A stretch of DNA of 64,000 nucleotides from a virus, in the IMG/VR virus record IMGVR_UViG_3300044858_004955, positions 6,321 to 70,320 of that record, one strand, 5' to 3'. The stretch's first letter is position 1; the number at the start of each line of letters is the position of its first letter. Made by a program: the position numbers and the translations under genes. Below, one piece after another: positions 2,134-27,385 of the stretch. Under the pieces are notes generated by a model. It was not told the origin of the DNA. It was given only the letters and a program-made list of their open reading frames with translations, and searched no databases.

Positions 2134-2159
2134 ACGGCAGGACAGGACAACGCTAGGCT
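2131..2159 (+). promoter_or_regulatory. candidate sigma70-type promoter
   Basis: TAGACG-17 bp-TAGGCT at the start of an intergenic gap. Confidence 0.3.
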
Positions 2160-2230
2160 ACTGGCCCCGCCATCGGCGGAGGTCCGGCACGTCGCCGGCC
2201 CCCGGCCGTGGCAACCCAAGGATGTGTGTG

Positions 2231-5495: not shown

Positions 5496-5764
5496 TTGTC
5501 GGACCCGTCCACGAGGCCGAGGGTGAGGACGTCGATCGCCTTCTTGCGGTCGTCGTCCAGCGTGCCGGTCGCCCGCAGACGCAGCCTCACGTTCGCGAGT
5601 GCGACGATCGCCTCCTTGTAGGAAGGCCCGACGAGCGCCGCCGGGTCATGGTCGCCGTCATCCGAGCCGATCCACCCGATGACGCTCTCTCCGAGCGCCA
5701 TGATCTGCGGCCAGATTGCCACGGCCACCGCGATCGCCACGGCGATGTACTGCATCGTCGTCAT
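5492..5764 (-). CDS. small membrane protein
   Basis: MTTMQYIAVAIAVAVAIWP; ATGA overlaps. Confidence 0.6.
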   Translation of the reverse strand: MTTMQYIAVAIAVAVAIWPQIMALGESVIGWIGSDDGDHDPAALVGPSYKEAIVALANVRLRLRATGTLDDDRKKAIDVLTLGLVDGSDK

Positions 5765-6048
5765 TCGATCCCTCCGGCGATCTTGGCGTAGGCCCAGTCG
5801 AAGGCTTCCTTGCCTTCCTTGGTCCGCAGGACCGCCTCGACGTGCCGGAGCGTCTCGTCGTCGAGCGACGTCGTGCTCTTGCCGGCGGCCCACTGGAGCG
5901 TCTTCACGATCGCCACGGCCTGCTCGTGCGGCGACTGCGCACTGCCGATGATCTGGAGTTGCGCGAGGAGCGGCGCCCACTCCGCGAGCAGTTTTAGGCG
6001 GTCGAGCAGCGGGAACCCGGCACCGTAGATTTCCTCGTCATTTTCCAT
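5761..6048 (-). CDS. hypothetical protein
   Basis: GGAGG RBS, coupled ORF. Confidence 0.65.
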   Translation of the reverse strand: MENDEEIYGAGFPLLDRLKLLAEWAPLLAQLQIIGSAQSPHEQAVAIVKTLQWAAGKSTTSLDDETLRHVEAVLRTKEGKEAFDWAYAKIAGGIE

Positions 6049-6232
6049 CGCGAGCCTCCCTTGCTCCGTACAAGAACCGGATATATGCGGGCGAAAGCGT
6101 CCGCGGCGTGCTGGTTAGCGCGCCCCAGTGAACGGGCGGCGGGTCCGAAACCTTCGCCATGAGAGGCGGCGAGTCATCGCCACCCCTTGCGACGAAGTCC
6201 CGCTCGTCGAGTTGTTCATCCGGCTGCGCCAT
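6038..6232 (-). CDS. hypothetical protein
   Basis: Fills gap in coupled operon. Confidence 0.5.
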   Translation of the reverse strand: MAQPDEQLDERDFVARGGDDSPPLMAKVSDPPPVHWGALTSTPRTLSPAYIRFLYGAREARDGK

Positions 6233-6410
6233 GCGTCGCGTAGTTCATTAAGTCGTAGCAGTCGTTGAACACGCATTCCCCGATGTCCCGCAGTTCACGC
6301 CGCGGGGCCGGGGTATCGAACTTCCACGTTTCCTGCTCCACGACGTTCGAGCCGACGGTCAGCACGAGCGTCGCGGATTTCTGCGTCAGCAGCAGGCGCA
6401 CCTCGGTCAC
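6216..6410 (-). CDS. hypothetical protein
   Basis: AGGAGG RBS, GTG start (VTEVR). Confidence 0.55.
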   Translation of the reverse strand: MTEVRLLLTQKSATLVLTVGSNVVEQETWKFDTPAPRRELRDIGECVFNDCYDLMNYATHGAAG

Positions 6411-6429
6411 TGTTGTCGCCTCCTGTGGT

Positions 6430-6747
6430 CTACTCCAGTCTACCACGCGGGGGGCCGACCAGCCGTGACTCCCGCTCATCGGGAGTCCAGCCAGCACGAA
6501 TCTTCGCACAAGCCGCACGGATCGTTTTCTCGTCAGGCTCGTACAGGTCGACCTCGGGCCGCTCGCCGAGGCCCATCGACACGGCGAGGGCATCGATCTC
6601 GGCAGGTGCCATCGCCAACTCGTCTGCAATCTCCTCGATCGTCGAGTCGCCCGACCAGAGCATGCGCAGGCGCCTCTTGAGATTGGCCGCCGCCTTCGAG
6701 GCCGCCAACTCCTCCGGCGTCATCCTGCGTCGTGGTGATCCGACCAT
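6430..6747 (-). CDS. putative HTH protein (GcrA-N-like), paralog of 9762 and 10034 genes
   Basis: LWSGDSTIEEIADEL and EPDEKTIRAACAKIRAGWT. Confidence 0.55.
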   Translation of the reverse strand: MVGSPRRRMTPEELAASKAAANLKRRLRMLWSGDSTIEEIADELAMAPAEIDALAVSMGLGERPEVDLYEPDEKTIRAACAKIRAGWTPDERESRLVGPPRGRLE

Positions 6748-6749
6748 GC

Positions 6750-7613
6750 TCAGATAGCCACATAGCGGCAGCCGGGGTTCAGGTACATCTGGTAGCCCGC
6801 CTCACGCATCGCACGATGGTGGGCGACGTGCTCGCAGTCCCCGCCGACGTAGCCGCCGTGCAGGAACGCCTCGGTCCAGTACACGGCGAGGCCGCCGAAC
6901 GCCGAGTACAGCGAGATCGGGTGCGACCCGACCGGCGGCAGGAGAAAGTGAAACCACTCCATGCCGACCTCCTCGCGGCGGTCTCGCCAGTCGTTGAGCC
7001 GGGCCGCCCATGCGTCGTAGCCCAGCACCTTCGCGACGCCGCGTCCGTGCTGGTGCCGCATGACCGAGTAGGACGCCATGCCGCCGGCCTGAAGGGCGTC
7101 GTGCCGGCTCGAGAGCCGCCCCAGCCACCCGATCGAATTGAAGACTCCGTCGACGCTGAACCCGCCGGCAGGGTCGCAGTCGAGCACGATCGTCCACGCC
7201 GTCTTCGGCGCCTCGTCGCGGACGTACCGCAGGCACTCGTTGCGGCAGTAGGCGAGGCGATTCGTGCGGTCGGCCCCGAACCCGCGGATGTCCTCGCCGC
7301 CCAGCGTCTCGTGGTCGACCGTCACACCGAACGTCGCACGGGCGTAGTCATCGAGCAGCCCGTCGGTGCCGTCGACCGAGTCGTTCTCGAACACGTAGAC
7401 GCTCGAGTCGTTGAAACCCTTTCGCACCTCCTCGACCAATCGCAGCGTGTTCTCGATCTCAGGCCGGGCGTTTCTCGCGATCATCACGATCGCCGCGTCG
7501 AGTTCCTTCGCCGCCCCGCGGCCGATGGCGACGGCGGTGCGGTAGGACTCCTCGTAGACAGGGTCCACCGGCCAGAAGTCCTCCGGGCGGATCAGTTGTT
7601 TTGAAACGTCCAT
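6750..7613 (-). CDS. glycosyltransferase, GT-A (CAP59-like)
   Basis: VFENDSVDGT, RLAYCRN, VLDCD (DxD), SAFGGLAVY, DCEHV. Confidence 0.8.
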   Translation of the reverse strand: MDVSKQLIRPEDFWPVDPVYEESYRTAVAIGRGAAKELDAAIVMIARNARPEIENTLRLVEEVRKGFNDSSVYVFENDSVDGTDGLLDDYARATFGVTVDHETLGGEDIRGFGADRTNRLAYCRNECLRYVRDEAPKTAWTIVLDCDPAGGFSVDGVFNSIGWLGRLSSRHDALQAGGMASYSVMRHQHGRGVAKVLGYDAWAARLNDWRDRREEVGMEWFHFLLPPVGSHPISLYSAFGGLAVYWTEAFLHGGYVGGDCEHVAHHRAMREAGYQMYLNPGCRYVAI

Positions 7614-8362
7614 AGTTCGATCGGTTGGTTGATGATCAGTCGCGGATCGCACCATATCTCCCCTCCCAGTTGTCGTATTCGGTCGCATAGACCGACGAAT
7701 CCCTCGTTCTCCATCCGGGCGCCGCATCGCAGGTACTCACCTTTGATGAGCGCGACGCTCCCCACCGTGTCGAGGCGGAACGGCTCCGTCGAATAGCACG
7801 GCGAGTACGGTGGCACCGAAGTGAATCGCACGCCATCGTGCCTATACCCCCATGTGTCGTAGAAGAACGGCAGCGGCGCCGGGCCTCCGTTCAGGTGCAA
7901 CTGGAGGTGCTCGCCGAGCCGGAGCGCTCCGTCGCACAGGTCGAGCGAGCGGTCCATGCCGACGCTCGCGAGACACGGCCACCCGCCGGCGACGGCACGC
8001 TTCTCGTCGCCATCGAGGACGTCGGCCAGCCGCTGCACCACGTCCGGCGGCGAGATCAGGTCGCTCTCGTGGATGAGCACACGCCCGGCCCCGTGCATGA
8101 GCGCGGCGTTGATCGCGACGTCACCCACGAGCGAGCAGGCGAGCAGGCGGTCGGCCGGTTTGTCCCAAGGCTCGACGATCAAAATCACCGGCACCGGCGA
8201 GTTTTCGATCACGAACCGCAGCATCTTCTCGGTGGCGTCGTTCGTCGGCCGGACGACCCATACCCAGCCGGACACGCCGGCCTTGTCCAAGAGGTGGCTG
8301 GTCCGCCGGACGAAATGCTTCCCGACGTCGCCCATCCACGCAGAGATGCCGATGGTCGTCAT
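7592..8362 (-). CDS. putative glycosyltransferase (GT-A-like)
   Basis: LIHESDL, FYDTWGYR, LDTVGSVALI; lies between a GT and a sugar aminotransferase. Confidence 0.55.
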   Translation of the reverse strand: MTTIGISAWMGDVGKHFVRRTSHLLDKAGVSGWVWVVRPTNDATEKMLRFVIENSPVPVILIVEPWDKPADRLLACSLVGDVAINAALMHGAGRVLIHESDLISPPDVVQRLADVLDGDEKRAVAGGWPCLASVGMDRSLDLCDGALRLGEHLQLHLNGGPAPLPFFYDTWGYRHDGVRFTSVPPYSPCYSTEPFRLDTVGSVALIKGEYLRCGARMENEGFVGLCDRIRQLGGEIWCDPRLIINQPIELWTFQNN

Positions 8363-9438
8363 GCCGAGCACCTCTCGAGCACCTCGCACACGGTCTTCAC
8401 GTCGTCCTTCGTGAGGCCGCAGTGCGTCGGCAGGACGATGCCCTCACCGTGGAGCCGGTGCGCCGCGCACCCGCCCACGGTGCGGAACGTCCTCATGTGG
8501 CGGTGCGTGTTCATCGGCGGGAACGCGGGCCGCGTCTCGACTCCGGCCTGAGCCATCCGGCGGATCACGGCGGCGGCCGGCATCCCGCTCTTCCGCACCG
8601 CGTATGCCCAGTACCCGCTCGTGTCGTTCGGGTGCGTCGCCTGCGGCACGACGCCGGCCGGCAGGAACTCGCCGTACCAGCGGAAGAGCATCCTCCGCTG
8701 CAACAAAAACGAGTCCAGTTTCTTGAGTTGCTCGACCAGCACGGCGGCCTGCAACTCGGTCATCCGGTAGTTCGTGCCCGCCGCGTCATGCACGTACCGC
8801 TCGCGGGTCTGGGCCTGACCGGCCATGTGCCGGACCCGCTCCCCGTGCAGCGGATCGCGCCAGCCCACGGCCCCGCCTTCTCCGCAGGTCACGGTCTTCG
8901 AGCCGTAGAAGGAGTACGTCGTCATGTCGGAGACGGCTGGCACGCCGGAGCGAAGCGCCCCCAGACCCTCGGCGTTGTCCTCGATGAGGACGATGCGCCG
9001 GCCCGTCGCAAGGTAGTGGTCGTGCCGCCACTGCTCGAGCGACGGCGGCGGCGTGCCGTAGAGGTTGACCGTGATGACCGCCTTCGTCTTCGGCGTCACG
9101 GCGCCTGTCAGAAATCCCGGCTCGATCGTCCACATTCGGTCGTCGATGCCGACGAACACGGGCTTCGCGCCGCAGTACAGGACCGCGTTGGCCGTCGCCA
9201 CGAAACTGGTCGCCGGCACGATCACCTCGTCGCCACGCCCCACGCCGGCTGCGAGGAGGGCTAGGTGGAGCGCGGCCGTACCGCTCGACACGACGTGGCA
9301 CGGCTGGCCGGTGATGGCCTCCATCGCGGCGTCGGCGGCATCGCACACTGGGCCGCGGGTCAGCCGGCCGGAGGCCAGCACCGAGGCCACGGCGGCGGCC
9401 TCCTCCTGCCCGACGATGGCGGCGCCGAATGAGATCAC
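8359..9438 (-). CDS. DegT/DnrJ/EryC1/StrS aminotransferase, perosamine synthase-like
   Basis: SSGTAALHLAL, IEDNAE, SFYGSKTVTCGEGG (PLP Lys), GTNYRMTELQAA. Confidence 0.9.
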   Translation of the reverse strand: MISFGAAIVGQEEAAAVASVLASGRLTRGPVCDAADAAMEAITGQPCHVVSSGTAALHLALLAAGVGRGDEVIVPATSFVATANAVLYCGAKPVFVGIDDRMWTIEPGFLTGAVTPKTKAVITVNLYGTPPPSLEQWRHDHYLATGRRIVLIEDNAEGLGALRSGVPAVSDMTTYSFYGSKTVTCGEGGAVGWRDPLHGERVRHMAGQAQTRERYVHDAAGTNYRMTELQAAVLVEQLKKLDSFLLQRRMLFRWYGEFLPAGVVPQATHPNDTSGYWAYAVRKSGMPAAAVIRRMAQAGVETRPAFPPMNTHRHMRTFRTVGGCAAHRLHGEGIVLPTHCGLTKDDVKTVCEVLERCSA

Positions 9439-9728
9439 TGGAGGCTCTCCAGAAAGTGCCGCGCGTCGGCCGCGCTCGTGACCGTCGTCACGGCGCACCC
9501 GAAGGAGGCCAGTTCACGCTGGCGGTGAAGTTGCACGCGGGTCGGATCGCATCCCGGTCGTTTGACCTCGATCCACGCGGCACGACCGTCCTTGATCGCG
9601 AGAACGTCAGGTAGGCCGACAACGGTTCCATATGAGCCTCCGTGAGTCTTCATGACCCACCAGCCCAAGGACCGCGCTTGCGCCATGACCTTGGCGACGA
9701 TCGTCCTCTCCAGAGGCTCGCGTCGCAT
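9435..9728 (-). CDS. VRR-NUC domain nuclease
   Basis: GLPDVL..WIEVKRPG..Q. Confidence 0.85.
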   Translation of the reverse strand: MRREPLERTIVAKVMAQARSLGWWVMKTHGGSYGTVVGLPDVLAIKDGRAAWIEVKRPGCDPTRVQLHRQRELASFGCAVTTVTSAADARHFLESLQ

Positions 9729-9734
9729 GGCCTG

Positions 9735-9752
9735 ATTGTATCCGCTTGCCGC
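9735..9752 (-). promoter_or_regulatory. candidate leaderless promoter
   Basis: GCGGCAA-N5-TACAAT-6 nt-ATG. Confidence 0.55.
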
Positions 9753-9761
9753 ATTGTGCGC

Positions 9762-10037
9762 CTAGTGAAATCTGTGTGTTTTCACGACGACCGGCCGGAC
9801 GCCCCCCCGTGACTGCCGCTTCTTCTTCGACCACCGCTCCTGTGCCGCCTCTGCCCCGGCCGCGATCTCATCCTCCGACGGGTCCGGCTGCCGCGACCAG
9901 ACAGACATACGCCGCGGCGGCAGGCCGAGCGCCTTGGCACGCCGTGTCACCGTCGCCGCCGATACGCCCAGTGTTTTCGCCAACTGCATATTCGAGCACG
10001 TCGCCCAGAGCCGCCGCAGCATCAACTCGTCGATCAA
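9762..10037 (-). CDS. putative HTH protein (GcrA-N-like)
   Basis: LWATCSNMQLAKTLGVS..LGLPPR..PDPSEDEI..ERWS. Confidence 0.6.
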   Translation of the reverse strand: MIDELMLRRLWATCSNMQLAKTLGVSAATVTRRAKALGLPPRRMSVWSRQPDPSEDEIAAGAEAAQERWSKKKRQSRGGVRPVVVKTHRFH

Positions 10038-10402
10038 CGAAGTCTCCCAAGGGTGTAGACAGGAAAGTGATACGGCAGCGGCCGGACACGACCGATCGAA
10101 CGGAGGACGAACATCTCATCCGTCCACGTCGCCTGAACCTTCGCCATGCGGTGCTGAACCTCCTCCGGGTCAAGTTCCGGCTCCGGGTCTCTGTTCCGCT
10201 TCCCCTTGCCGGGGTTGTGCCACGGCTTCCGCGACGACCGCCGCGGCAGCCTGAGATCACGCTTGATGCGGTCGAGCACGTAGGCCGACACGCCGAGCGC
10301 GGTGCAGATGTCCTCGTTGAGCGCGTCGGTCCCCCAGATCGCCAGCAGTTTCTCGTGGTCGACGACCGCCAGCGGAACGCGGCGGATTCGCGGTTGCTTC
10401 AC
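10034..10402 (-). CDS. putative HTH protein (GcrA-N-like)
   Basis: IWGTDALNEDICTALGVS..LRLPRR..DPEEV..ATWT. Confidence 0.6.
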   Translation of the reverse strand: MKQPRIRRVPLAVVDHEKLLAIWGTDALNEDICTALGVSAYVLDRIKRDLRLPRRSSRKPWHNPGKGKRNRDPEPELDPEEVQHRMAKVQATWTDEMFVLRSIGRVRPLPYHFPVYTLGRLR

Positions 10403-10656
10403 CGGCCGCCCCACAACTCGAGTATCCGCAGGCTCAGGCGGGCGATCTTCTTTTCCGTCTCGTGCGACTCGTGCCGCAACTTCTCGACCTCGGCAGACAG
10501 GAGCGTGTTCGTGTCCTCGAGGCGATGGCACTTGGCTTGCAGCCGGCGGATGGCCTTGTTCGCGCTCGCGGCCCCCGCCGTGGCCCGGTGCCACTGCAAC
10601 TCGTAGTGCCGGCAGAGCGAGAGGAGCCGCTGGATTTCGGCGTGCAGATCGATCAT
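10399..10656 (-). CDS. coiled-coil hypothetical protein
   Basis: GGAG RBS, heptad pattern. Confidence 0.55.
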   Translation of the reverse strand: MIDLHAEIQRLLSLCRHYELQWHRATAGAASANKAIRRLQAKCHRLEDTNTLLSAEVEKLRHESHETEKKIARLSLRILELWGGR

Positions 10657-10865
10657 TCGATGTCCACTCCGACCTCGTTGGCGATCGTGAACAACTCCTG
10701 CCGGACCTCGTCGTAGAACTCGACGCCGTCGGTGCCGTACTTCGCCTTGTTCCTGAGCCACGACGCCACGCGGCGGAGCACGCTCTGGTACTTGTGGCCG
10801 TTCTGGGCGACCTCGAAATCCTTCTCGTCCTCCGGCAGTCGGAAGTGCAGACTCGCGGACGGCAT
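10653..10865 (-). CDS. hypothetical phage protein
   Basis: LHFRLPED..WLRNKAKY; coupled. Confidence 0.65.
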   Translation of the reverse strand: MPSASLHFRLPEDEKDFEVAQNGHKYQSVLRRVASWLRNKAKYGTDGVEFYDEVRQELFTIANEVGVDIE

Positions 10866-11092
10866 CAGTCGTCCCCCAGATGCTTGCGGGTGTACGCGAC
10901 CATCTCGAGGGAGTAGACGGCGAGCGCCTCGCGGATCATGTAGATGGAGAACGCCATGCCCTTCTGGTCGTCGTCGTCGCATTCGCCGGCGACGCCGTCG
11001 AGGTAGTCCATGAGCGAGCGGATCGTCCTCTGGGCGGCAAGCATCCGCCGCATGAGGTCGAGCCGCTCGTCCTCGGTCATGCCCGCGCCCAT
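10865..11092 (-). CDS. hypothetical protein
   Basis: Coupled ORF. Confidence 0.55.
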   Translation of the reverse strand: MGAGMTEDERLDLMRRMLAAQRTIRSLMDYLDGVAGECDDDDQKGMAFSIYMIREALAVYSLEMVAYTRKHLGDD

Positions 11093-11553
11093 TCGTAGCC
11101 CTTCTTCTGAAAAAGGGTCGGATGCAGGCAAGCCCGCCGTGCCACGAGCATCATGTGCGGGTGGAAGACGGCGACGTTCGCACCTTTTTCAGTGAGTAGT
11201 GCCGACGCGAGGCCGGCTGCACACCACGCGGCGATGCCGCGGTGCCGATACTCCGGCGCCACGAACGCCTCGAGCGTGTCGTGTTGCGTCGTCTCCCAAC
11301 AATGCGGCGGCCCGCCTTGGTCGAGGAAGACAGGGTTCGTCCGTTCGGTCCACGACTCAGTCCGGCACCACCCGACGATCTCGCCTTGGTCGCTCGCGAT
11401 CGCAATGTGCCCGTCGGCCTCCTCCGGCTTCAGCCCGCGGAGCCACGCGCCCAACTTCCTCTGGAAGTCGCTGCCCGGCTTCGTGAGGCGGTCGCGCAGC
11501 CACTCCGCGGCGTGCTCTGGGAGTTGTGTCGCTGGGTGGATTAGACAGTGCAT
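11077..11553 (-). CDS. GNAT-family acetyltransferase
   Basis: GEIVGW..EAFVAPEYRHRGIA (motif A). Confidence 0.7.
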   Translation of the reverse strand: MHCLIHPATQLPEHAAEWLRDRLTKPGSDFQRKLGAWLRGLKPEEADGHIAIASDQGEIVGWCRTESWTERTNPVFLDQGGPPHCWETTQHDTLEAFVAPEYRHRGIAAWCAAGLASALLTEKGANVAVFHPHMMLVARRACLHPTLFQKKGYEWARA

Positions 11554-11554
11554 T

Positions 11555-12088
11555 TCATGGCTCGAAGAGTCGCGGTTGTGTGGCATTCGTGTACGGCCAT
11601 TCGTCTCTCACCAGCGTGCAGTCGTCCATCTTGATGAAAGCGTTTGCGCGTTCCACCTCGCCGCCGTTGACCGTCTCCTGCGTCGTCGTCCGGTCGCATC
11701 GAAACGGCACGCAGAAGTCTCCTTCTTTGTCCACGATCTTCTGCAACATCAGCACCCGCGAGTCCACGAGGTAGCAAAACCCATACAGAGGAATGCACAG
11801 CGACCCGCACACGTCTCTCGCGGTCGTGATCTTCCGCATCGTGACAAGCCACTCGTTCTTGAACACCGTGCGGAATTTCTCAAGAGTGAGGTTGTATCGA
11901 CATTTCGCTTCGACCCCAGCGGACACGACGCCGGCAGGCGAGATCAGAAATCCGTCTATCTTTGACCCCTTGTTCTCAGGACACATTAACAACCGCCAGC
12001 CGGGGTAGGCTTTCTCCCACATAGCGACAGCGCGAGCGAGGTCTTTGAGTGTCTGCTGCCCGCGAGGCGTGTTGACGGCGAGGCCCAT
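11555..12088 (-). CDS. PD-(D/E)XK nuclease-like protein
   Basis: KIDGFL..GVEAKCR. Confidence 0.6.
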   Translation of the reverse strand: MGLAVNTPRGQQTLKDLARAVAMWEKAYPGWRLLMCPENKGSKIDGFLISPAGVVSAGVEAKCRYNLTLEKFRTVFKNEWLVTMRKITTARDVCGSLCIPLYGFCYLVDSRVLMLQKIVDKEGDFCVPFRCDRTTTQETVNGGEVERANAFIKMDDCTLVRDEWPYTNATQPRLFEP

Positions 12089-12090
12089 GA

Positions 12091-12966
12091 CTACACGCTT
12101 TCCGCGATCGCTTCGTAGTCCAGCCCGTCGATCTCTGGGAAATCCTCGATCTCGCTGAACTTGAACATCTTCGGACGGTCGCCGTTCAGTTCGGCGTTGA
12201 ACGCCTTGATGGCTTTCGCCGCGTTCTTGCGTCGCAGGTCAGTCCTCGGCCCGTGCTCGATCAGCGTCTCGCGGAGCCTGACGAAAGGCCGTCCGATGTC
12301 CGTGTGCCCCGACGCGAGCACCTCGGCGAACTCGTCCGCCAACTTCGCGTTCACCCGCGAGAACAGGTAGTGCAGCACGTAGCCGTACTGGTTGTTGTAG
12401 AGCCTCGTCCTGCTCATGACCTGAACGCTCCTTCTCAGTTCTGGATGAGCCTCCAGCACGCGCTGCACCGCCGGAGCCGTGGCCTTTCTCGCCCCTGACG
12501 TCGTGTGGCGCAAGACGCCCCCGAAGTCGATGAATGACAGGAGAGCCTGCGCAGCGGCGCTCAACTGGCTCGTGTGAACCTCGCCGCACAATGCCAGCGT
12601 GTCGCCGGTCGTCCGCTTCTTGCCACTGTCGAGCGTCCTGAAAGCATCCGGGTCGATGCCTCGGACGACGATCGCGTCCCATGCGACTCCCGATTCCACG
12701 CAGCCGTGCAGGCGATGCTGTCCGTTCAGCATATTGCCGTCGACGTCAAAGATGATCGTCTCGCCGTTGAGAATCATGTCGCCGGCCAGAAACATATCCT
12801 TCATGTTTTTGACGTGGAGCGTGTTCAGCGGGCGGTTCTTCTTGTTTCGCTCAAGCATCTGTCGAGCGATTGCAGGAGTGATCCGCATGATCTGCACGGT
12901 GACTCCGGCATACAGGTCGCGCAGTTCTTCCTCGATCTCACACTCGATCTCGATCGCGGCGGTCAT
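12091..12966 (-). CDS. ParB-N-like domain protein
   Basis: ITPAIARQMLERN..NRPL..LNGQHRL..LDSGKKRT. Confidence 0.75.
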   Translation of the reverse strand: MTAAIEIECEIEEELRDLYAGVTVQIMRITPAIARQMLERNKKNRPLNTLHVKNMKDMFLAGDMILNGETIIFDVDGNMLNGQHRLHGCVESGVAWDAIVVRGIDPDAFRTLDSGKKRTTGDTLALCGEVHTSQLSAAAQALLSFIDFGGVLRHTTSGARKATAPAVQRVLEAHPELRRSVQVMSRTRLYNNQYGYVLHYLFSRVNAKLADEFAEVLASGHTDIGRPFVRLRETLIEHGPRTDLRRKNAAKAIKAFNAELNGDRPKMFKFSEIEDFPEIDGLDYEAIAESV

Positions 12967-12989
12967 GGTTTTCCCCACTTGTTGATGAC

Positions 12990-13244
12990 TTACTTCCCAA
13001 ACCTCACATACAGCGGCCCGTTCTCGCCCACATACGCACCGAGCGTGTTGAACGACAGGTACTCCTCGGCGTCCTCCGGCGTCATGCCGTCGCGCTCGAC
13101 CAGAACGTCAACGCACTTGTCGATGTCGTAGACCGCGACGTGCGGGTGGTGGTGGTTCACCGTGTAACCCACGAGAGCCGCTTCAAGGCCGTCGGCGAGG
13201 AGGGCGTCTGGGTTGAGTTCGGCGAGGTTTTCGAGGGTGCTCAC
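12990..13244 (-). CDS. conserved phage hypothetical protein
   Basis: ADGLEAALVG..AVYD..AEEYLSFNTLGAYVGENGP. Confidence 0.7.
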   Translation of the reverse strand: MSTLENLAELNPDALLADGLEAALVGYTVNHHHPHVAVYDIDKCVDVLVERDGMTPEDAEEYLSFNTLGAYVGENGPLYVRFGK

Positions 13245-13978
13245 TCCACCATCCCCCTCACCTGCTCGATCCACTCCGAGAACAGCGACACGTCGGTGTG
13301 CGCGCTCTCCTCGCCCTCGCGGCTGCGGAGCGGGCCTGTGCCGTCGCGCATCGTGAACGAGTGAATGCCGGCGATCCGGGCGTCAGAGCCGGAGCCAGTG
13401 AAGAGCGGGCCGCCGGAGTCGCCCGGGGCGATGCCGAACTCACGGGAACTCGACCGCCTGTTGATCCCGCAGATCAGCAGCGTCCGCTCGCGCCTTTTGA
13501 TCGTGTTCGTGCCGGCCCGCAAGAGGCCGTCGGATCGCGAGTACCCACCGGAGATCGGCCCGGTCGCACCGTAGCCGGCCAGCGAGCACACGGTGCCTTC
13601 GTTGTCCGCTTCGGTCGCATAGCACGGGTAGTGGTCGAGGCCGAAATCCCCTTTGCACCGCAGGATCGCAAGGTCGTGCCACCCGATGTTCGCCTCGTCG
13701 AACTTCGGGTGGACGAACACGGTCGTGACCGGGTTGCCGCCGACCGCCACCGTCATGGCCTCGTTGACAACGTGGGCCGCGGTCATCGCCAGATGCGGAG
13801 CGAACACGACGCAGGTGCCGATCGCCAGACGTCCCGACGGCTCGACGACCTCGCACTTCCGCACGTAGGGAGCGAACGAGGCGCCGTACTTCACGTAGAC
13901 GGAGTCAGGCACGGAGTCGTCGATCGTGCCGGCGGCTGCGGCCGACGCGATTGCGGCGAATGCGAGCGTCGGCCTCAT
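13241..13978 (-). CDS. secreted trypsin-like serine protease
   Basis: Signal-like N-terminus; TAAHV, HDLAIL, GDSGGP triad. Confidence 0.9.
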   Translation of the reverse strand: MRPTLAFAAIASAAAAGTIDDSVPDSVYVKYGASFAPYVRKCEVVEPSGRLAIGTCVVFAPHLAMTAAHVVNEAMTVAVGGNPVTTVFVHPKFDEANIGWHDLAILRCKGDFGLDHYPCYATEADNEGTVCSLAGYGATGPISGGYSRSDGLLRAGTNTIKRRERTLLICGINRRSSSREFGIAPGDSGGPLFTGSGSDARIAGIHSFTMRDGTGPLRSREGEESAHTDVSLFSEWIEQVRGMVE

Positions 13979-14622
13979 GCGTCCCTCCGCTCAAACTGGT
14001 AGTACATCAGTTCGTCCTCGCCGGCGGTCCACTTCCACCCGGCGGCCTCGCAGGAGAACTCACGCGGGAAGACCTCCCACCGCTCGTGGCCGGAGAGCGA
14101 CTTGCCGATGAACGCACCGCCGTCGTGCCAGACGACGCGGTTGTTTGGCTGGCAGGCCAGCCTGCCGCAGTCGAGAGCGACGACGTGTCCGCACTTGTGG
14201 CCGGCGGCCATCTCCGCGTAGCCGGTCTGGTGATCCGGCCCGTGGCACCAGTCGATCGTGAAGAGATACCGACCGCTCTCGGTCGACTTGTCCTTCATGA
14301 CGACCGTGCATCTGGCGTTCTTCAGATAGTCGTGCCTGACGACGCTGAAGTAGGGCGAGAAGCAGTCCCACAATTGCAGCCAGTCCAGCGGGTGATCACG
14401 CCGAATCGATTCCGGCACGTCCATCCGCAGGTAGTGGATCGGCACCCTCGCGTGCTGGCTGCCCATCTCGCTCATCACGGAGAACATGAGGCACCGCCTC
14501 GGAATGCTGGTCACGCCGAAGACCTCGACCAACAGGCCGTCCTCGCCGGTGGGCAACGAATCGTGCAGGAAGCCCGAGTCGAGCCACGCCCAGAACGGAG
14601 GGATGTCCGCGTTCAAATACAT
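13975..14622 (-). CDS. conserved phage hypothetical protein
   Basis: MYLNADIPPF..LQLWDCFS..QPNNR; coupled. Confidence 0.7.
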   Translation of the reverse strand: MYLNADIPPFWAWLDSGFLHDSLPTGEDGLLVEVFGVTSIPRRCLMFSVMSEMGSQHARVPIHYLRMDVPESIRRDHPLDWLQLWDCFSPYFSVVRHDYLKNARCTVVMKDKSTESGRYLFTIDWCHGPDHQTGYAEMAAGHKCGHVVALDCGRLACQPNNRVVWHDGGAFIGKSLSGHERWEVFPREFSCEAAGWKWTAGEDELMYYQFERRDA

Positions 14623-14840
14623 CGCTGCTTCTTCTCGAGCCAATCAGCGGCCTTCACGAGCCACGCGGCGGTCTGCCTGAGCAGGTCGACGCGCTCGCTG
14701 AAATCGAGGTCTCCTTCACGCGGCGGGATCGTGTCGATGCGCAGGTCGACGTATGGCCTCGTGCATTCATCCTCGATGCACTGGAGGACGAACTGGTCTT
14801 CGTCGATCACGAGGGCTGCTGGTGCCACTTCCTTCGGCAT
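14613..14840 (-). CDS. hypothetical protein
   Basis: GGAG RBS, coupled. Confidence 0.55.
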   Translation of the reverse strand: MPKEVAPAALVIDEDQFVLQCIEDECTRPYVDLRIDTIPPREGDLDFSERVDLLRQTAAWLVKAADWLEKKQRCI

Positions 14841-14844
14841 GACG

Positions 14845-14928
14845 TCACTCCATGTATCGCAGGAGGCTCAGGTAGGTGGCGGCTCCTGCCGCCACGAGGA
14901 TCAAGAAGACGTTCGCCCAGACGTCCAT
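14845..14928 (-). CDS. 27-aa membrane peptide
   Basis: MDVWANVFLILVAAGAATYL, TGATG coupling to csrA. Confidence 0.4.
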   Translation of the reverse strand: MDVWANVFLILVAAGAATYLSLLRYME

Positions 14929-15104
14929 CACGGCTTCTCCGCGACGGCGGGCTTCGGCGCGACCAACTCCTCGCGGAGGACGGTCGTGTCCAGCGGGGCG
15001 ATGACGCCGATGCGGACGCGGCCTTGCTCCACGCCGCGCACCTCGATGACGACGTCCTTGCCGATCAATATCCGCTCGCCAATTCGTCTGGTCAGGCACA
15101 GCAC
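14928..15104 (-). CDS. csrA: carbon storage regulator CsrA/RsmA family RNA-binding protein
   Basis: LCLTRRIGERILIG..VRIGVIAP..VLREEL, AAGGAG RBS. Confidence 0.9.
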   Translation of the reverse strand: MLCLTRRIGERILIGKDVVIEVRGVEQGRVRIGVIAPLDTTVLREELVAPKPAVAEKP

Positions 15105-15139
15105 TTGAGGCTCCTTCCTCGTTTGTGTCGGTCGGAAGC

Positions 15140-15625
15140 CTAGCAGGCTGCCGGATTCTCTGCAAGCCATGTTTTCGCGGCATCCTTCACCGCTTTGCGA
15201 GGGTGCTCGGCAGCGGCCCACGCGATGTATTCCGCCCCGTGCGGCCTCGTCAGCACCTCGGCGAACGTGAGGCCGTCGAACCGGCCGCCACGAAGCCGGA
15301 ATTCTTCCCCCGCCGGCTGCTCGAGGACGCCGGCGACCGCACGCTCCCAGAATCGGGTGCCGCAAAAACAGCACTCAAGAAGCCACATCCGGTCCCGCTC
15401 GTCGACGATGTCGAGGGCATCAGCCCCGCACGCCTCGTCGCAGCACTCGTAGTGCCCGTCGAGTTTGCCGAGCATGGCTGGCAGGACGCTCCACGACGGC
15501 CCAGTCGGCGCTGGTGCCTCGACCACGACGGCGGCGGCCTTCTTCCGCCTCTGCGTCTTTTTCTTGACGTCCTCCGGGGCCGCCGTCGCGTCGGTGGTTA
15601 TGTCGAACAGTAGATCAGTGGTCAT
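15140..15625 (-). CDS. Zn-ribbon protein with short GRFDG..Y..W domain
   Basis: CDEAC / CCFC pairs and GRFDGLTFAEV..EYIAW. Confidence 0.55.
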   Translation of the reverse strand: MTTDLLFDITTDATAAPEDVKKKTQRRKKAAAVVVEAPAPTGPSWSVLPAMLGKLDGHYECCDEACGADALDIVDERDRMWLLECCFCGTRFWERAVAGVLEQPAGEEFRLRGGRFDGLTFAEVLTRPHGAEYIAWAAAEHPRKAVKDAAKTWLAENPAAC

Positions 15626-17280
15626 AGTGGTAACTCCATGCGGTACTTCGCCCTTGGGTCGTGCGCCACGACCAACTTGTGCTTCGCTCGTGTGCAGGCC
15701 ACGTACTCGATCCGCCGCTCCTCGGCGAACTTCTTCTCGTCGTCTTCCTCGGCGACTCGCGTTCTCTGCGAAACGCTGCTCAACACGATGACCTTGGAAG
15801 CCTCCATGCCCTTGGACGAGTGGATCGTGCCAATCCGAATCTTCGGCTCGCTGACGGCCTCGACGCCCCACTTCTTCGCAGCACGCACCCACTTCGTGCC
15901 GCCGTCCGGCAGGCCAGCCCATTTGCCGCTGGCAACCGCCTCGCACAACTGCGGCGAGGCGCCGAGGGCCGGCAAGTCCTCCGGGTAGACGCGGTCGTAC
16001 TGCTCCGACAGCCCTTTCTTCCACGCCGACTTGCTGCCTCGCGTCAGCCACTCCATCCCGTCCGTGGTCTTCGACGGCAGAATCTCGGTTATTCTCCCCC
16101 ACGCTTCGCCGCTGATGCCCTCGCCGTGCTGGAGCCGCCAGAGACCGGCCATGCCCAGTTCCTTGCACCCGACGCCCTCTCTCCGCTGCTTGACGTAGCG
16201 AAACGGCACGCCGATGTCCTCGAGGATCGCCCTGATCTTCGACACGTTGCGATTCGTGCGGGCGATCACAAGCGTGTCTTCGTCCGGCCGGAGGTCCGAC
16301 AGGTCGTCCTCAAAGTTCTCGCTCTCGACAACCTCGCCGTCGTGGTCGGCCGGGGCGATCCCCCGATCCCAGTAGTCCGGCAGACGCTGAAGGCACCGCT
16401 CGCCGAGTTGCATGATCGGCTTCGGGCATCGGAACGACTTCGGCATGATGTGCTGCTTCGTGACTTCCCACCCCATGAAGTGCTCCGCAGCCGCCCCAGC
16501 CCACGAGAACAGAACTTGATATGGGTCTCCGACGAGCCATGCCCAGCGGCACGCATCGCCCGTCACGAGCCTCCGGCACGCGAGGTCGAGCAGGCGGCTG
16601 GAATCCTGAGCCTCGTCGAAAATCCACCCGACAACCTCGTCAGGCACCGACCCCTCCGGCGCCACCTCGATTGGGCCGTCTTCCGGGTCGAACCGCAGCC
16701 CGACGAACCTGCTCAGGAGGTCCGTGAAGTCCGACCGTCCCTCCAGCCGCTTGGCTTGCTCGTACATGGTGATCCGCTTGATCACCTCGCCGGCATCCGG
16801 GGCTGTCGGGTCTTGGTCGGCCTCCACGATCTCGCGCAGCGGCCGGCAGACGTTCCTCGCCAGCGACCAGTAGTTCAGGGCCGCAGCCGCGACCGGATCG
16901 CCCTGATAGACCGCCACGCCACCATCCTCGTCCTCGTCAATCGCGAACGCGACGTCGCTGCCGATGGCCTCGCTGACCCACTTCTCGTCTTCCTTCCCGC
17001 CGGCGATCATCTCCCCGCGGCTCACCCCCAACTGCCGGTAGCAGACCGAGTGGGCGGTCCTGAACCACCCATGCTGCATCAATTCCTCCGGGGGCACCCC
17101 CCAAGCCGTCCCACAACGCATGGCGGCCTCCAGACGGGCAGCCCGCGTGAGCGACGAGAAACCGAGCGAGAACGGGTTCCCACCAGTCTCCGGCCTCTCC
17201 AGCGCCTTCTCAGCCGTCTGCTTCATCAAGGCGGTCTTCCCGGTCCCGGCGCCGCCAATTGCCCTCAAACACTGCAACAT
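15622..17280 (-). CDS. UvrD/Rep-like SF1 helicase
   Basis: GGAGTGKT, DEAQD, GDPYQ, SFRCP, TIHSSKGMEA, YVACTRAK. Confidence 0.9.
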   Translation of the reverse strand: MLQCLRAIGGAGTGKTALMKQTAEKALERPETGGNPFSLGFSSLTRAARLEAAMRCGTAWGVPPEELMQHGWFRTAHSVCYRQLGVSRGEMIAGGKEDEKWVSEAIGSDVAFAIDEDEDGGVAVYQGDPVAAAALNYWSLARNVCRPLREIVEADQDPTAPDAGEVIKRITMYEQAKRLEGRSDFTDLLSRFVGLRFDPEDGPIEVAPEGSVPDEVVGWIFDEAQDSSRLLDLACRRLVTGDACRWAWLVGDPYQVLFSWAGAAAEHFMGWEVTKQHIMPKSFRCPKPIMQLGERCLQRLPDYWDRGIAPADHDGEVVESENFEDDLSDLRPDEDTLVIARTNRNVSKIRAILEDIGVPFRYVKQRREGVGCKELGMAGLWRLQHGEGISGEAWGRITEILPSKTTDGMEWLTRGSKSAWKKGLSEQYDRVYPEDLPALGASPQLCEAVASGKWAGLPDGGTKWVRAAKKWGVEAVSEPKIRIGTIHSSKGMEASKVIVLSSVSQRTRVAEEDDEKKFAEERRIEYVACTRAKHKLVVAHDPRAKYRMELPL

Positions 17281-22809: not shown

Positions 22810-22839
22810 ATAGTACGCGGCTGCTAGGCGGCCCGTCAA
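22810..22839 (-). promoter_or_regulatory. sigma70-type promoter for replication operon
   Basis: TTGACG-18 bp-TACTAT followed by AAGGAGG RBS. Confidence 0.7.
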
Positions 22840-23408
22840 GAGAAATCCCGCGGCCGTCCGACCTTCCCGCCGGCGTGCTGCTGCTGCCTCACGATCTTCG
22901 CGTTTTCGAGGCACGACTTCCGCGAGCAGATGTAGACAGCCCTGTGCCGCGTGAGCACTTGATCGCGTGAGTGGAGCCTGCGGCCGACGATGTCGCCGGC
23001 CTTGATCATCCGTGGTACGAACGACGGGTGGACGCCGAGGATGCCGGCGGCCTCGCGGACACCGATGGCGTCGCCGAACGCGATCGGCTCGTCGATCGCC
23101 GCGAGTTTGCGGATCATCGGCTCACGGAGGTGAATCCACGCCCGCGGCCGGCGGTCATTCATGCCGCCGCGTGCCTGCACCCTCTCGTCGTACTCGCGGT
23201 AGTTCGCGTCGCACTCGGAGCCGTTGAAGACGACGAACGCACGCTGCCCAGTGCCGGCGCCCTCCATCTCGCTGGCCGAAAGCCAGCCCTTCGACAACAT
23301 CCTCGCCGGCACGGACCAGTGCAGGCCCATGATGGCGGCGGCCTCGTGCGGGCCGACGGCTTGGTTGACCGCCTGCCTGATCTCGCTATCCGTCAGTCGT
23401 CTAGCCAT
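22836..23408 (-). CDS. tandem HTH DNA-binding protein (candidate repressor/excisionase)
   Basis: Two repeats EAAAIMGLHWS / EAAGILGVHPS; divergent from integrase. Confidence 0.65.
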   Translation of the reverse strand: MARRLTDSEIRQAVNQAVGPHEAAAIMGLHWSVPARMLSKGWLSASEMEGAGTGQRAFVVFNGSECDANYREYDERVQARGGMNDRRPRAWIHLREPMIRKLAAIDEPIAFGDAIGVREAAGILGVHPSFVPRMIKAGDIVGRRLHSRDQVLTRHRAVYICSRKSCLENAKIVRQQQHAGGKVGRPRDFS

Positions 23409-23460
23409 CGCCGCATCCTCATACGTGTCCGGCGGCGAACTGCTGCCGGTTGTGTGGATT

Positions 23461-23523
23461 TTGACGGCGGGGAAGGGGGTTGGCAAACTCCGGTTGACAA
23501 GATGCAATGGAGGCGGCAACACT
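23461..23523 (+). promoter_or_regulatory. candidate tandem promoters for recombinase operon
   Basis: TTGACG-17-CAAACT and TTGACA-18-AACACT. Confidence 0.45.
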
Positions 23524-23574
23524 CTAACTCCGAGGCGGCTGGACACCACCTTGAAACGCGAAAGGAGTCGAGAA

Positions 23575-23787
23575 ATGCCGGTGCAACGTGCCTACATCGC
23601 GGTGATCTCGTGGATCGACGGAGAGGTTGAGGACGCCGATGAACTCCGCGTGTTCGCAGAGTCAGCGGAATCCGCAAAGTCTCTCGCAAAGGAAATCTGG
23701 CTTAGGGCGAAGTCGCCGCGGTGGCCGACGTGCCGGATTTCCTCGGTGGAGGTTTTCCCGCAGGCGAGGCTGTCATCCCTTGCATGA
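23575..23787 (+). CDS. hypothetical protein
   Basis: AAGGAG RBS, MPVQR. Confidence 0.6.
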   Translation: MPVQRAYIAVISWIDGEVEDADELRVFAESAESAKSLAKEIWLRAKSPRWPTCRISSVEVFPQARLSSLA

Positions 23788-23826
23788 GTGACCCCCAATT
23801 GGCACCCTCCGCCGTGAGGATGCAAC

Positions 23827-24690
23827 ATGACTCACACGCTCATATCTGTACTCCACGATCTTTACGTGCCGCTCAGGTCGCTCTGCCCAAGGAGCGCCGA
23901 GAACTACGAGTTCACGATTCGTGCGTTCTCGGCGTTTCTTGGGCGAGAGGCGACTCTGGACGACCTCGACGAACTGACCGTCGCGAGGTACTTGACCAAC
24001 CGTGCCAAGGAGCGTGCGATCGCCACGGCCGCGAAGGACCGCGCCCAACTCCGCGCACTCCACGAGTTCAGCGCGAGGCGGAAACTTTGCGACCACTGGC
24101 CCCAATACCCGCCGATCCGCGTGCCTGACCGCGTGCCGGAGGCGTGGTTCTCAGGCGAGATGCAGCGACTGCTTGACGCTGCTGGTCAGGAGAAGACGGT
24201 GCTTGACGGCATCCCCGGCGGCCTTTGGTGGCGGGCGCTCCTTCTTCTGGCCTACGACACGGCCGAGCGTGCGACTGCACTGACGAGCCTCCGATGGCGT
24301 TCCGTCCGAGGCTCCTCAGTCCTCTTCGTGGCCGAGGACCGCAAGGGACGCCGCCGCGACATCCTCCGCGAGATCGGCGAGGACACTCTGGCGGCGCTTG
24401 AGGCGATTCGTGGAGAACGCGGGCAGGACGACCTCGTCTTCCCGTGGCCGCGGACGCGGACCTACCTCTGGCGGCGGCTCGAGATCATCCTCGAGCGTGC
24501 GGGCCTGCCGCATGGCCGGCGGGACAAGTTCCACCGCATCCGAAGGACGACGGCCTCCTACTACGAGGCCGCCGGCGGCTCGGCCCAGCGGCTCCTCGAC
24601 CACTCCGACCCGGCGACGACGCGGAAGTACATCGACCCGCGGATCGTCAGGCCACAGGCAGCGCCGGAACTGATCCCGAGGGTGTCGTGA
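23827..24690 (+). CDS. tyrosine recombinase / phage integrase family
   Basis: DTAER (R), RKG (K), FHRIR (HxxR), LLDH, KYID (Y). Confidence 0.9.
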   Translation: MTHTLISVLHDLYVPLRSLCPRSAENYEFTIRAFSAFLGREATLDDLDELTVARYLTNRAKERAIATAAKDRAQLRALHEFSARRKLCDHWPQYPPIRVPDRVPEAWFSGEMQRLLDAAGQEKTVLDGIPGGLWWRALLLLAYDTAERATALTSLRWRSVRGSSVLFVAEDRKGRRRDILREIGEDTLAALEAIRGERGQDDLVFPWPRTRTYLWRRLEIILERAGLPHGRRDKFHRIRRTTASYYEAAGGSAQRLLDHSDPATTRKYIDPRIVRPQAAPELIPRVS

Positions 24691-24941
24691 GCGACATCGT
24701 GACACGCCTGCGACGGTGGACGCACGCAGTGGACGCGGCGCCAGCAAGCGACCTCATGGACGAGGCTGCGGATGAGATTGAGCGGCTGCGGCTCACAGAC
24801 GAGGAGCGTGCCGCTATTGATGAGGTCGCTGCGAACGAAGCGGCCAGTGCCAGCAGAAGCGCGACGCGAGCGATTGCGCTGCGTAGGCTACTGTGGCGGA
24901 CGCGAAACGGTTCACCAGAAGGCAGCGAAACGGTGCAGTGA
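24687..24941 (+). CDS. hypothetical phage protein
   Basis: VSDIVTRLR..EAADEIERLR, GTGA overlap. Confidence 0.65.
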   Translation: MSDIVTRLRRWTHAVDAAPASDLMDEAADEIERLRLTDEERAAIDEVAANEAASASRSATRAIALRRLLWRTRNGSPEGSETVQ

Positions 24942-24957
24942 GAACGACATCGCACAG

Positions 24958-25020
24958 CGATCCCGGCGGGCAGGCACCGCACCGATAAAGCGGCCCGCCG
25001 AACCCGCCGGGGTCGTTTTT
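24958..25020 (+). terminator. long hairpin with T5 tail
   Basis: CGATCCCGGCGGG / CCCGCCGGGGTCG + TTTTT. Confidence 0.5.
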
Positions 25021-25076
25021 GAGAACACGCAGGATAAGCGGCGGCTTCGCCGTCCGCTTCATCCGCTGGTTCTGTG
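25020..25076 (-). other. integron attC-like recombination site
   Basis: Minus strand AAC-5nt-GATGAAGC..GCTTATC-6nt-GTT with two extrahelical bases and a 3-nt loop. Confidence 0.75.
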
Positions 25077-25377
25077 AGCGTAGAAAGGGAGACATGGACA
25101 ACAACTGGCAGCCAATCGAAACCGCACCAAAGGACGGCACCGACATCCTTGTCGGCTGGTGGTCGGCAGGCGTGTGGATTGTGCGAAACGCATGGTGGGA
25201 AGACGGGTTCGACATCAACATCGGAGCCATCGACCCAGCGGGCGAGGGCTGGTGGTATCCCAACACCAGCGTCGGCACCTACAAGGTCTGCCGGGAGAAC
25301 AACGCTGTGGACGGCCCGCAGTATTGGATGCCGATGCCAGAGCCGCCCGCAGAGCATGGCAGCAAGTAGCCACAGAA
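25026..25377 (-). mobile_element. integron-type gene cassette (352 bp)
   Basis: Ends GTTCTGTG (25069-76) and CACAGAAC (25371-78) are exact reverse complements around one gene. Confidence 0.65.
25094..25369 (+). CDS. DUF551-like protein (cassette gene)
   Basis: WQPIETAPKDGT..PQYWMPMPEPP. Confidence 0.8.
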   Translation: MDNNWQPIETAPKDGTDILVGWWSAGVWIVRNAWWEDGFDINIGAIDPAGEGWWYPNTSVGTYKVCRENNAVDGPQYWMPMPEPPAEHGSK

Positions 25378-25488
25378 CTTGTGTTTCTGCTGTCCGTGTA
25401 ACCCGCCGCTTCCGTATATCACGCCACCACTCATACGCGAAACTCGGCGCAAAACGACTGATTTCAAATATGATCGGAACGTCGGCGA

Positions 25489-26404
25489 TCAGACGACGCA
25501 CCCACTCGTCGCCCGCCACCACGCCACGGTCTCAGCGATCCCGTCTCGCAGCGTGACCTGCGGCTCCCACACGAGCACCTCGCGTGCCCGCGAAGCATCG
25601 ACCGCACGACGCGGCTGGCCGTCCGGCTTTGACGAGTCCCAGCGGGTCGTGCCGTGGTACTCGCACTCGCAGGCGATCAGTTCGGCCAAGTCTCGCATCG
25701 TCACCTCGCCGCCGCCTCCGAGGTTGACTGGCTCCGGCGTCTCAATGCGTTCGGCGGCACGAAGAATCCCTTCGGCCGCGTCGGCGACGTGGAGGAACTC
25801 ACGACTGGCCGACCCGGTCCCCCAGAGCGTGACGTCGCCGGCCGAGCAGAAACGCCGGATCATGGCTGGGATGACGTGGCTGGAGGCCGGGTCGAAGTTG
25901 TCGCCGGGACCGTACAGATTCGTCGGGATCACGACTGACCCTGCCATGCCGTACTGGGCGTGGTACTGCTTCAGGAGTTCGTAGACGGCTCTCTTCGCCA
26001 CGCCGTAGCCAGCGTTCGTTGCCTCCGGGTATCCGTTCCATAGGTCGGACTCCTTGAACGGCACGGGCGGTGAGAGCGGGTACGAGCAAACCGTCCCGAC
26101 GATGACCGTGCGGCGGCACTCGTGCAGGCGGGCTGACTCGACGACGTTCAGGCCCATCGCGAGGTTCGCGTAGGTAAACCGCCCCGGCGTCCGCATATTG
26201 GCGCCGATGCCGCCGACCTCCGCGGCCAGATGCAAGACGACGTCCGGCCGGCAGGCGGCGAACAGCCTCGCCGTGGACCGCGGGTCGGTCAGGTCGCACA
26301 CGCGACGCCGCGGCACGGTCACCTGCGTGCAGCCGCGCTCCTCGAGCAGCCGGCATACGACGCGGCCGAGGAACCCTGCCCCGCCGGTGACCAGCACGCG
26401 GCAG

Positions 26405-26427
<23 letters not shown>
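25489..26427 (-). CDS. fcl: GDP-L-fucose synthase
   Basis: [40 protein letters not shown]. Confidence 0.9.

Positions 26428-27385
<958 letters not shown>

Follow-up and report, generated by a model that had tools for sequence, protein, structure and literature searches.

Can a tailed phage without an integron integrase carry a gene cassette of the integron type, together with a site at which such cassettes come and go? The question is raised by a stretch of 64,000 nucleotides, here called the window (64.5% GC), which comprises bases 6321-70320 of a 70,320-bp IMG/VR virus record with a completeness rating of 100%. PHROG matches to the large terminase, portal, head protease and major head protein identified a tailed phage, and further matches in the phage included the tape measure, tail fibres and helicases. 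All 24 of the runs listed with this stretch were labelled lake water metagenome. A preliminary description of the letters had proposed that a hairpin and a small gene, lying behind a tyrosine recombinase gene, form a cassette with an attC site and an attI-like junction. The features of the locus are collected in Table 1. INPHARED phage records held no relatives of positions 23500-26500, the sole match being a 78-bp stretch. The two minus-strand genes at the right end of the locus look like surface-sugar conversion genes; the GDP-mannose 4,6-dehydratase was recognized by Pfam with an E-value of 2.5e-134 and adjoins tail fibre genes.

Table 1. Features of the cassette locus, in window positions.
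Feature	Position	Strand	Remarks
HTH/excisionase-like gene	22836-23549	-	
Tyrosine recombinase gene, 287 aa	23827-24690	+	PF00589, E 7e-11
Small ORF, 84 aa, motif LRLTDEER	24687-24941	+	stop within TGAGAAC
Conserved hairpin, 21 pairs	about 24957-25018	+	left of arrays in several phages
attC-type site	25019..25079	+ (bottom strand)	fold, models R1 and R2, pair counts
AAC	25024-25026	+	pairs with GTT 25069-25071
6-nt spacer, ACGCAG	25027-25032	+	
5' arm, 13 nt	25033-25045	+	
Loop, TTC	25046-25048	+	
3' arm, 15 nt	25049-25063	+	bulged T25053 and C25060
5-nt spacer, CGCTG	25064-25068	+	
GTT	25069-25071	+	R box extends to 25076
Cassette, 352 bp	25026..25377	+	attC then gene; AA/C on both sides
Cassette gene, 91 aa	25094 (ATG)..25369	+	GGGAG 5-9 nt upstream of ATG
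Cassette end, CACAGAAC	25371..25378	+	complementary to GTTCTGTG at 25069-25076
Putative attI-like landing site	25379..25430		fixed right edge of variable region
Convergent genes, GDP-fucose-synthase-like (epimerase) and GDP-mannose dehydratase	25489-27385	-	tail fibre genes beyond

We first consider the hairpin. Read on the minus strand from 25071 to 25024, the site is AAC-CAGCG-GATGAAGC-GGACGGC-GAA-GCCGCC-GCTTATC-CTGCGT-GTT, and every element of the attC-like layout listed in the preliminary description, including the spacers and the two extrahelical bases, was present. Folded as single-stranded DNA, the site reached -17.5 kcal/mol against a shuffled mean of -9.0 (z -4.5), and none of 200 shuffles folded as well. 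The central spacer was unpaired and asymmetric (6/5 nt), a spacing that was also kept across alignments A1 and A2. In attC sites the bulged bases of the bottom strand lie on the arm opposite the AAC (Nivina et al. 2016, PMC5027507); since the bulges of the window lie on that arm too, the plus strand of the window is by this rule the bottom strand, in line with the preliminary description. The crossover would then fall between A25025 and C25026. The window departs from the extended attC consensus given in PMC5027507: where this reads RYYYAAC (R') and GTTRRRY (R''), the window has GAGAAC (CACAGAAC if the cassette is circular) and GTTCTGT. The GTTC core had been described as a deviation from canonical sites. 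It is indeed present but is no oddity, since GTTC is common in environmental bacterial arrays, GTTCGGC being one example among the sites called there by our model R1 (below). Simple motif counts carried little information: the flank pattern AGAAC..GTTCT was not above chance (2 found, 0.85 expected), and CACAGAAC as a bare 8-mer was not rare (3 matches, 1.6 expected). No Rfam family matched the site at E-values up to 10. The significance of the site comes from the structure model and from the comparison with relatives.

Phage loci with the same cassette gene supplied further hairpins of the same design, and 14 sites were aligned. Paired cells made up 95.1% of this alignment as compared to 86.1% in shuffles, with 0 of 500 shuffles reaching the observed value; six pairs changed on both sides, and pairing dropped to 29-48% when the partners were slid by 1-3 columns. 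The AAC and GTT columns of the R box were invariant in all 14 sites. A covariance model built solely from phage sites (R1) identified one strong site in the window, with a score of 64.9 bits and an E-value of 3.5e-16, while three other matches had E-values of 0.14-0.67. Across 12 viral sources R1 called 43 sites; a pattern scan of viral contigs returned 73 stretches, 6 of them with true sites. A pattern derived from both arms matched at least 120 stretches in bacterial genomes, and within the 80 loci listed R1 gave 146 matches with E-values of up to 1e-4, arranged in same-strand arrays. One bacterial genome (G008, locus L224) encodes an integron integrase (2080-3024, minus strand) that scored 415.7 bits with TIGR02249 (cut-off 265), and beside it R1 found 20 matches at 4472-16703, all on the minus strand. 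For an array whose reading direction leads away from intI, this is the bottom strand. These sites have the form CGCCTAAC, 6 nt, GATCAGCGG ... GTCCGCTGCATC, 6 nt, GTTAGGCG, and their L boxes are identical to those in most phage sites. The arrangement in a further genome, G010, was as in G008. In 4 kb of R100 searched with the filters off, the sole R1 match below E 0.1 was the attC site of aadA1 (31.5 bits, E 6e-8), on the strand opposite the gene and thus on the bottom strand; in the model, the bulges T25053 and C25060 of the window coincide with the bulged T and G of this site.

A reverse model (R2) was made from 13 attC sites beside true integron integrases, 10 from G008, two from G010 and the R100 site; these training sites had themselves been located with R1, so that the two tests are not fully independent. 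R2 recovered 23 of the 30 sites called by R1 in the eight sources searched, on the same strand and with the window site among them; its other two matches were weak and lay elsewhere. The window site was the best R2 match in the window, at a marginal 20.2 bits (E 0.016, roughly calibrated), and at the same locus in two relatives R2 scored 43.1 bits (L235) and 38.3 bits (L234). As far as sequence models can tell, the kinship of the phage site family with true attC sites is clear. The proposal that the hairpin is of the attC type with the minus strand as its top strand was thus borne out by the pair counts, R1, R2 and the R100 match.

The AAC triplet of the site recurs at 25376-25378, giving a period of 352 bp. 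As described previously, the unit has reverse-complementary 8-bp ends, CACAGAAC being read at 25371-25378 on the plus strand and at 25069-25076 on the minus strand; circularization of the cassette would unite CACAGAAC and GTTCTGTG into a complete R box. The CACAGAAC end was also found on several other cassettes. The gene inside the unit had a GC3 of 0.80 in its frame. Its product is a divergent DUF551-like protein: it matched DUF551 (PF04448) at 11.5 bits and E 0.56, below the cut-off of 22, and PF04448 was carried by 12 of its 41 homologues. A search of 401 Planctomycetota genomes did not find the protein.

The unit recurs elsewhere. When the window was compared by blastn to eight otherwise unrelated loci (L002-L009), essentially only 25024-25378 (355 bp) matched, and the unit was 98.9% identical in L002, 95.2-95.5% in L003-L006 and 89.0% in L009. 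The edges of the unit coincide exactly with AAC. L007 matched from unit base 29, with another attC before its gene, and L008 from unit base 78, with its gene fused to another ORF. To the left of the AAC we found five different flanks with no common homology. The terminal AAC was followed on the right by another attC in L006 and L008, by other sequence in L003-L005 and by the attI-like sequence in the window and L009, of which L002 and L007 have variants. When all arrays were compared with one another, the ends of most blocks lay at positions -4..0 or +2..+3 counted from an AAC, and a minority of left ends lay inside the hairpin at offsets of 28-63. A 313-bp cassette was 100% identical in two arrays (G001 and G002) in which its neighbours differ. 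Gene and attC were combined differently in L007, L146, L126 and L171, with some breakpoints within the hairpin, and exchange at AAC only fails to account for these combinations. Stretches of about 60 nt in L146 (488-551), L126 (2154-2213) and L171 (1237-1294) matched the attC type of the window with 90-97% identity, each time before a different gene; these short contigs were binned with bacterial genomes (Planctomycetaceae, a bacterium and Methylocystis, respectively) and may be phage fragments. In four lake-water runs, contigs stopped matching the window at 25020-25023 and at 25378; beyond these stops they were unlike the window, and some joints skipped 25084-25365. The stops agree with the cassette edges, but we do not count them as evidence, since assembled contigs tend to break at repeats. 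Summed contig depth over 24923-25110, which covers the upstream hairpin and the attC, was 10- to 100-fold above the flanks in runs X5, X13, X18 and X24, so that many other contigs in the lake samples have these elements in common with the window.

The 3' half of the small ORF at 24687-24941 differed among close relatives. Its LRLTDEER motif, often with a C-terminal GLLER, was found again in many cassette proteins (L087, L086, L050) and also in L237, in genes lacking an attC, indicating one gene family with a cassette and a non-cassette form. The hairpin that follows this ORF recurred at 87-98% identity to the left of arrays in G002, G004/L008, L009 and L233/L234/L236, with 98% identity in L234, and was absent from L235; it had no Rfam match, and a T-run after it was seen in the window copy only.

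We then examined the right edge of the cassette, where the junction is AAC/TTGTGTTT, or GCAGAAACACAA-GTT when read on the minus strand from 25390 to 25376. Beyond the junction come two direct repeats spaced by 18 nt, TCCGTGTAAC (25393-25402) and TCCGTATATCAC (25411-25422). Four relatives (L233-L236) have a recombinase 97% identical to that of the window and backbones 91-92.6% identical to it over many kb. Collinearity with them ends at window position 24787 or 24808 and restarts at 25373/25374, at the terminal (C)AGAAC. Between the collinear parts L235 has one different cassette, and L233, L234 and L236 have two others and extra genes; each of these contents has AAC at its end, and behind it lie TTGTGTTT and the region with the repeats. 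In addition, L009 and L277, with flanks 87-88% identical, differ in that L009 equals L277 plus exactly 352 bp. The extra 352 bp are the cassette of the window, placed between the resident cassette and the junction. Recombination of a circle with the resident attC would place the new cassette on the left side of that attC, and exchange between two attC sites thus cannot account for this position; the insertion or loss must have used the junction itself. An inverted repeat copy was found beside the crossover in L235, L234, L277, G001 and G002. Two divergent versions of the site, that of the window and that of G001/G002, both have junction repeats 18-19 nt apart and a second repeat 25 nt from the crossover. 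Matches to the palindrome of the attI-like site in L275 and L278 were rejected as unrelated low-GC sequence. No integron integrase gene or Pc-type promoter was found beside the junction.

By comparison of relatives, 25379..25430 would be the site where cassettes insert. The downstream junction, which the preliminary description had called attI-like, emerges from this comparison as the fixed right edge of three cassette contents and of an occupied/empty pair. The description had also suggested that related phages be searched for an empty site or alternative cassettes; the relatives showed alternative cassettes (L233-L236) and the occupied/empty pair L009/L277. Likewise, its view of the 352-bp unit as a discrete mobile cassette agrees with the recurrence of the unit in unrelated loci and with the exact difference between L009 and L277.

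The recombinase gene is the sole PF00589 gene in the 70-kb record. Its best NCBIfam match was Xer-like at about 42 bits, it had no match to TIGR02249 and it aligned weakly to IntI1 (E 0.015). A block of roughly 45 columns common to IntI1 and the G008 integrase, which we take to be the part that contacts the bulged attC bases, is absent from it. A tblastn search with IntI1 and the G008 integrase found nothing in 137 viral loci (1.43 Mb). Judged by its sequence, the enzyme does not belong to the integron integrases and is probably the integrase of the phage; the earlier statements that the recombinase lacks the IntI-specific insertion and that the phage has no IntI therefore stand. Pirellulales genomes with similar sites encode true integron integrases (446 and 459 bits), which makes these bacteria candidate hosts. 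An integrase locus (L229) had no array beside it. In a Planctomycetota genome (L230, G014:C197, positions 146-1205) a partial integrase gene and an attC with its bottom strand on the plus strand are convergent, indicating an integron with intI reversed relative to the usual layout.

Arrays of such sites occurred on several phage contigs, with the same orientation within each: 10 sites in G001, seven in G004, six in G002, five in G003, four in L050 and two each in G005, L009, L006, L003 and L234. Where a CALIN is defined by at least two attC sites without intI, the window, with one site, lies outside the definition, and L234, G002, G004 and G001 have the number of sites that it asks for. The direction of the cassette genes was assessed by GC at codon positions. 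Of 30 phage cassettes, 27 had the gene on the bottom-strand side, whereas 61 of 86 bacterial cassettes had it on the top strand; among the 25 exceptions in bacteria, nine came from three short contigs with phage-type R boxes. The gene of the window follows the phage pattern. As had been noted earlier, it is antisense to attC and co-oriented with the recombinase gene, both being on the plus strand. With this reversed orientation a cassette would be read with the upstream phage operon and not from a promoter at attI.

Many phage sites contain a ribosome-binding site and a start codon within the hairpin; the 3' arm then codes for a common peptide, S-x-A-S-x-G-S, and the following AAC comes directly after the stop codon. 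In the arrays of L087 (6977-8963), L086 and L090, many cassette ORFs start in the attC loop, AGGAG being part of the 5' arm and the N-terminal peptide M..D...S.ASAGS coming from the 3' arm. A scan of 27 proteins (25 cassette ORFs, the window ORF 24687-24941 and one L009 ORF) gave three DUF551 proteins, one DNA methylase and one member of a crAss001_48-related family, and the rest had no match. A cassette in L088 (500-1201, minus strand) encodes a 234-aa N6/N4 DNA methyltransferase (PF01555, E 3.3e-21).

Taken as a whole, the locus is probably best explained as an integron-type cassette at a phage attI-like site, most likely moved by an integron integrase of the host. The 352-bp unit would be a cassette made of attC, with its bottom strand on the plus strand of the window, followed by the DUF551-like gene. 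It would be the sole cassette at a phage-borne attI-like site, would come from a pool that circulates among lake-water phages with genes on the bottom-strand side, and would have its gene read together with the upstream phage operon. The enzyme would be supplied by the host and act in trans. A host integrase is favoured because the phage itself has none, and we regard it as the most likely catalyst; a phage-specific attI-like site is, on the other hand, hard to reconcile with a generic host enzyme. An unlikely but credible alternative is that the same cassettes and landing site form a self-contained system without IntI in which the phage's own atypical tyrosine recombinase moves the cassettes. 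The gene for this enzyme ends at 24690, 333 bp before the attC site and on the same strand, homologues of 36-39% identity were found on the array contigs G001 and G005, and three of five further array contigs had a match (a homologue on G417, weaker or partial matches on G416 and G418), including both that are at least 90% complete. A recombinase of this family was present on most array-bearing contigs complete enough to judge, R1 sites were found in 8 of 42 loci of the family, and attI-like repeats are common to phages with it. Such co-occurrence may reflect shared ancestry of temperate phages, and the nearby excisionase-like HTH gene fits an ordinary phage integrase. The family is without the extra block of the two aligned integron integrases, and the bulges and L boxes seen in bacterial sites served by IntI are retained in the phage sites. 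The gene was adjacent to the array and on the same strand in the window, about 8-10 kb off and on the other strand elsewhere; in L002-L009 the 6 kb around the unit held no copy of it. L237 has a recombinase 73% identical to that of the window without any sites, and G420 (88% complete) has sites but no gene of the family. We consider it improbable that the phages possess a capture system of their own, with a conserved attI-like site, a pool of reverse-oriented cassettes in which attC also provides the ribosome-binding site and a common N-terminal peptide, and a non-IntI recombinase as the catalyst.

The structure of the site, its kinship with true attC sites, the exact edges of the cassette and the turnover at the junction are established by sequence comparison. 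The junction could nevertheless be a secondary (attG-type) site or the fossil end of an array, with a real cassette in what would be a passive relic. An integrase can insert cassettes outside att sites, as reported in a preprint (bioRxiv 10.1101/2022.09.11.507474), and the lack of an adjoining IntI or Pc-type promoter would fit. We find this quite improbable, given that the innermost cassette differs among the window, L235, L234, L009 and L277 between flanks that are 87-92% identical, and that the layout of the repeats (18-19 nt apart, 25 nt to the crossover) is kept between divergent versions. It is highly improbable that the hairpins are regulatory RNA or DNA elements, such as translational operators or terminators, carried by modules that are shuffled by homologous recombination. 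The Shine-Dalgarno sequence and start codon in many hairpins, the common N-terminal peptide encoded by the 3' arm and the breakpoints inside some hairpins speak for this account. It is largely refuted, because the flanks to the left of AAC have no homology, because in L009/L277 the unit was inserted at a junction with no hairpin on its right, and because R1 finds true attC sites beside IntI genes, as in G008, and in R100. An integron-type cassette moved by a host integrase thus remains our preferred explanation.

Integrons are the classic gene-capture device of bacteria, and reports from phages have so far been limited to scattered attC clusters. Here a phage lineage appears, from the genomes compared, to have a working layout with one fixed landing site, different cassettes in near-identical genomes and an exact occupied/empty pair. 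Families associated with phages are among the cargo (DUF551, a crAss-like protein and an orphan DNA methylase), and the reversed orientation means that new cassettes would join the end of a phage operon and not stand behind an integron promoter. The locus offers a testable case of base-pair-precise swapping of accessory genes by phages, and of either host integrases acting on infecting phage DNA or a non-IntI recombinase using attC hairpins. If the phages do have a capture system of their own, a second enzyme lineage would recombine folded attC hairpins.

Several known systems resemble this locus in part. In the promoter-stem-loop cassettes of T4-type phages, small phage genes lie between repeated hairpins and are shuffled between genomes, and this is thought to occur by homologous recombination at the repeats. 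The present cassettes differ from them in having exact edges at a 3-nt triplet and hairpins that are attC homologues. Clusters of attC in phages were already reported in 2023, and the present locus is a variant of that kind. According to Qi et al. 2023 (PMC9892861), a screen of 10,705 NCBI phage genomes found integron parts in 21 phages, with 17 CALINs, and five of six phage attC sites tested recombined with attI1 under IntI1. As here, the cassettes described in that paper have attC sites without intI, and methyltransferase cassettes occur in both; the L088 methyltransferase fits the orphan methylases reported in phage cassettes. The screen as described required at least two attC sites per cluster, so that a single-cassette locus such as that of the window would be missed. 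The passages of PMC9892861 consulted here mention no phage attI without intI, no reversed gene orientation and no occupied/empty comparison. Full-text searching of the literature found no other report of integron parts in phages.

Sedentary chromosomal integrons such as that of G008 share with the phage sites near-identical L boxes, the bulges and the 6/5 spacers. Both kinds of array consist of co-oriented small genes of unknown function, with one attC type and many genes. They differ in that intI adjoins attI in bacterial arrays and is absent in the phage, in the side of the gene (above) and in the R box, which is CGCCTAAC/GTTAGGCG in G008 and CACAGAAC/GTTCTGTG in the window. The attI1 site of R100/Tn21, whose elements are named DR1, DR2, L and R (compare the legend to Fig. 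4 of PMC9892861), is the closest parallel to the landing site. The preliminary description had likened the end of the junction to that of attI1; the junction is present and the layout is alike, but the sequences differ. The second repeat lies 25 nt from the crossover in the window and 33 nt from it in attI1, and the window has no adjacent intI or Pc. The likeness is one of layout: in attI1 as in the window, two direct repeats with GTTA-type cores, spaced by 18-19 nt (19 nt in attI1), precede a short A-rich run with AAG/TT at its end.
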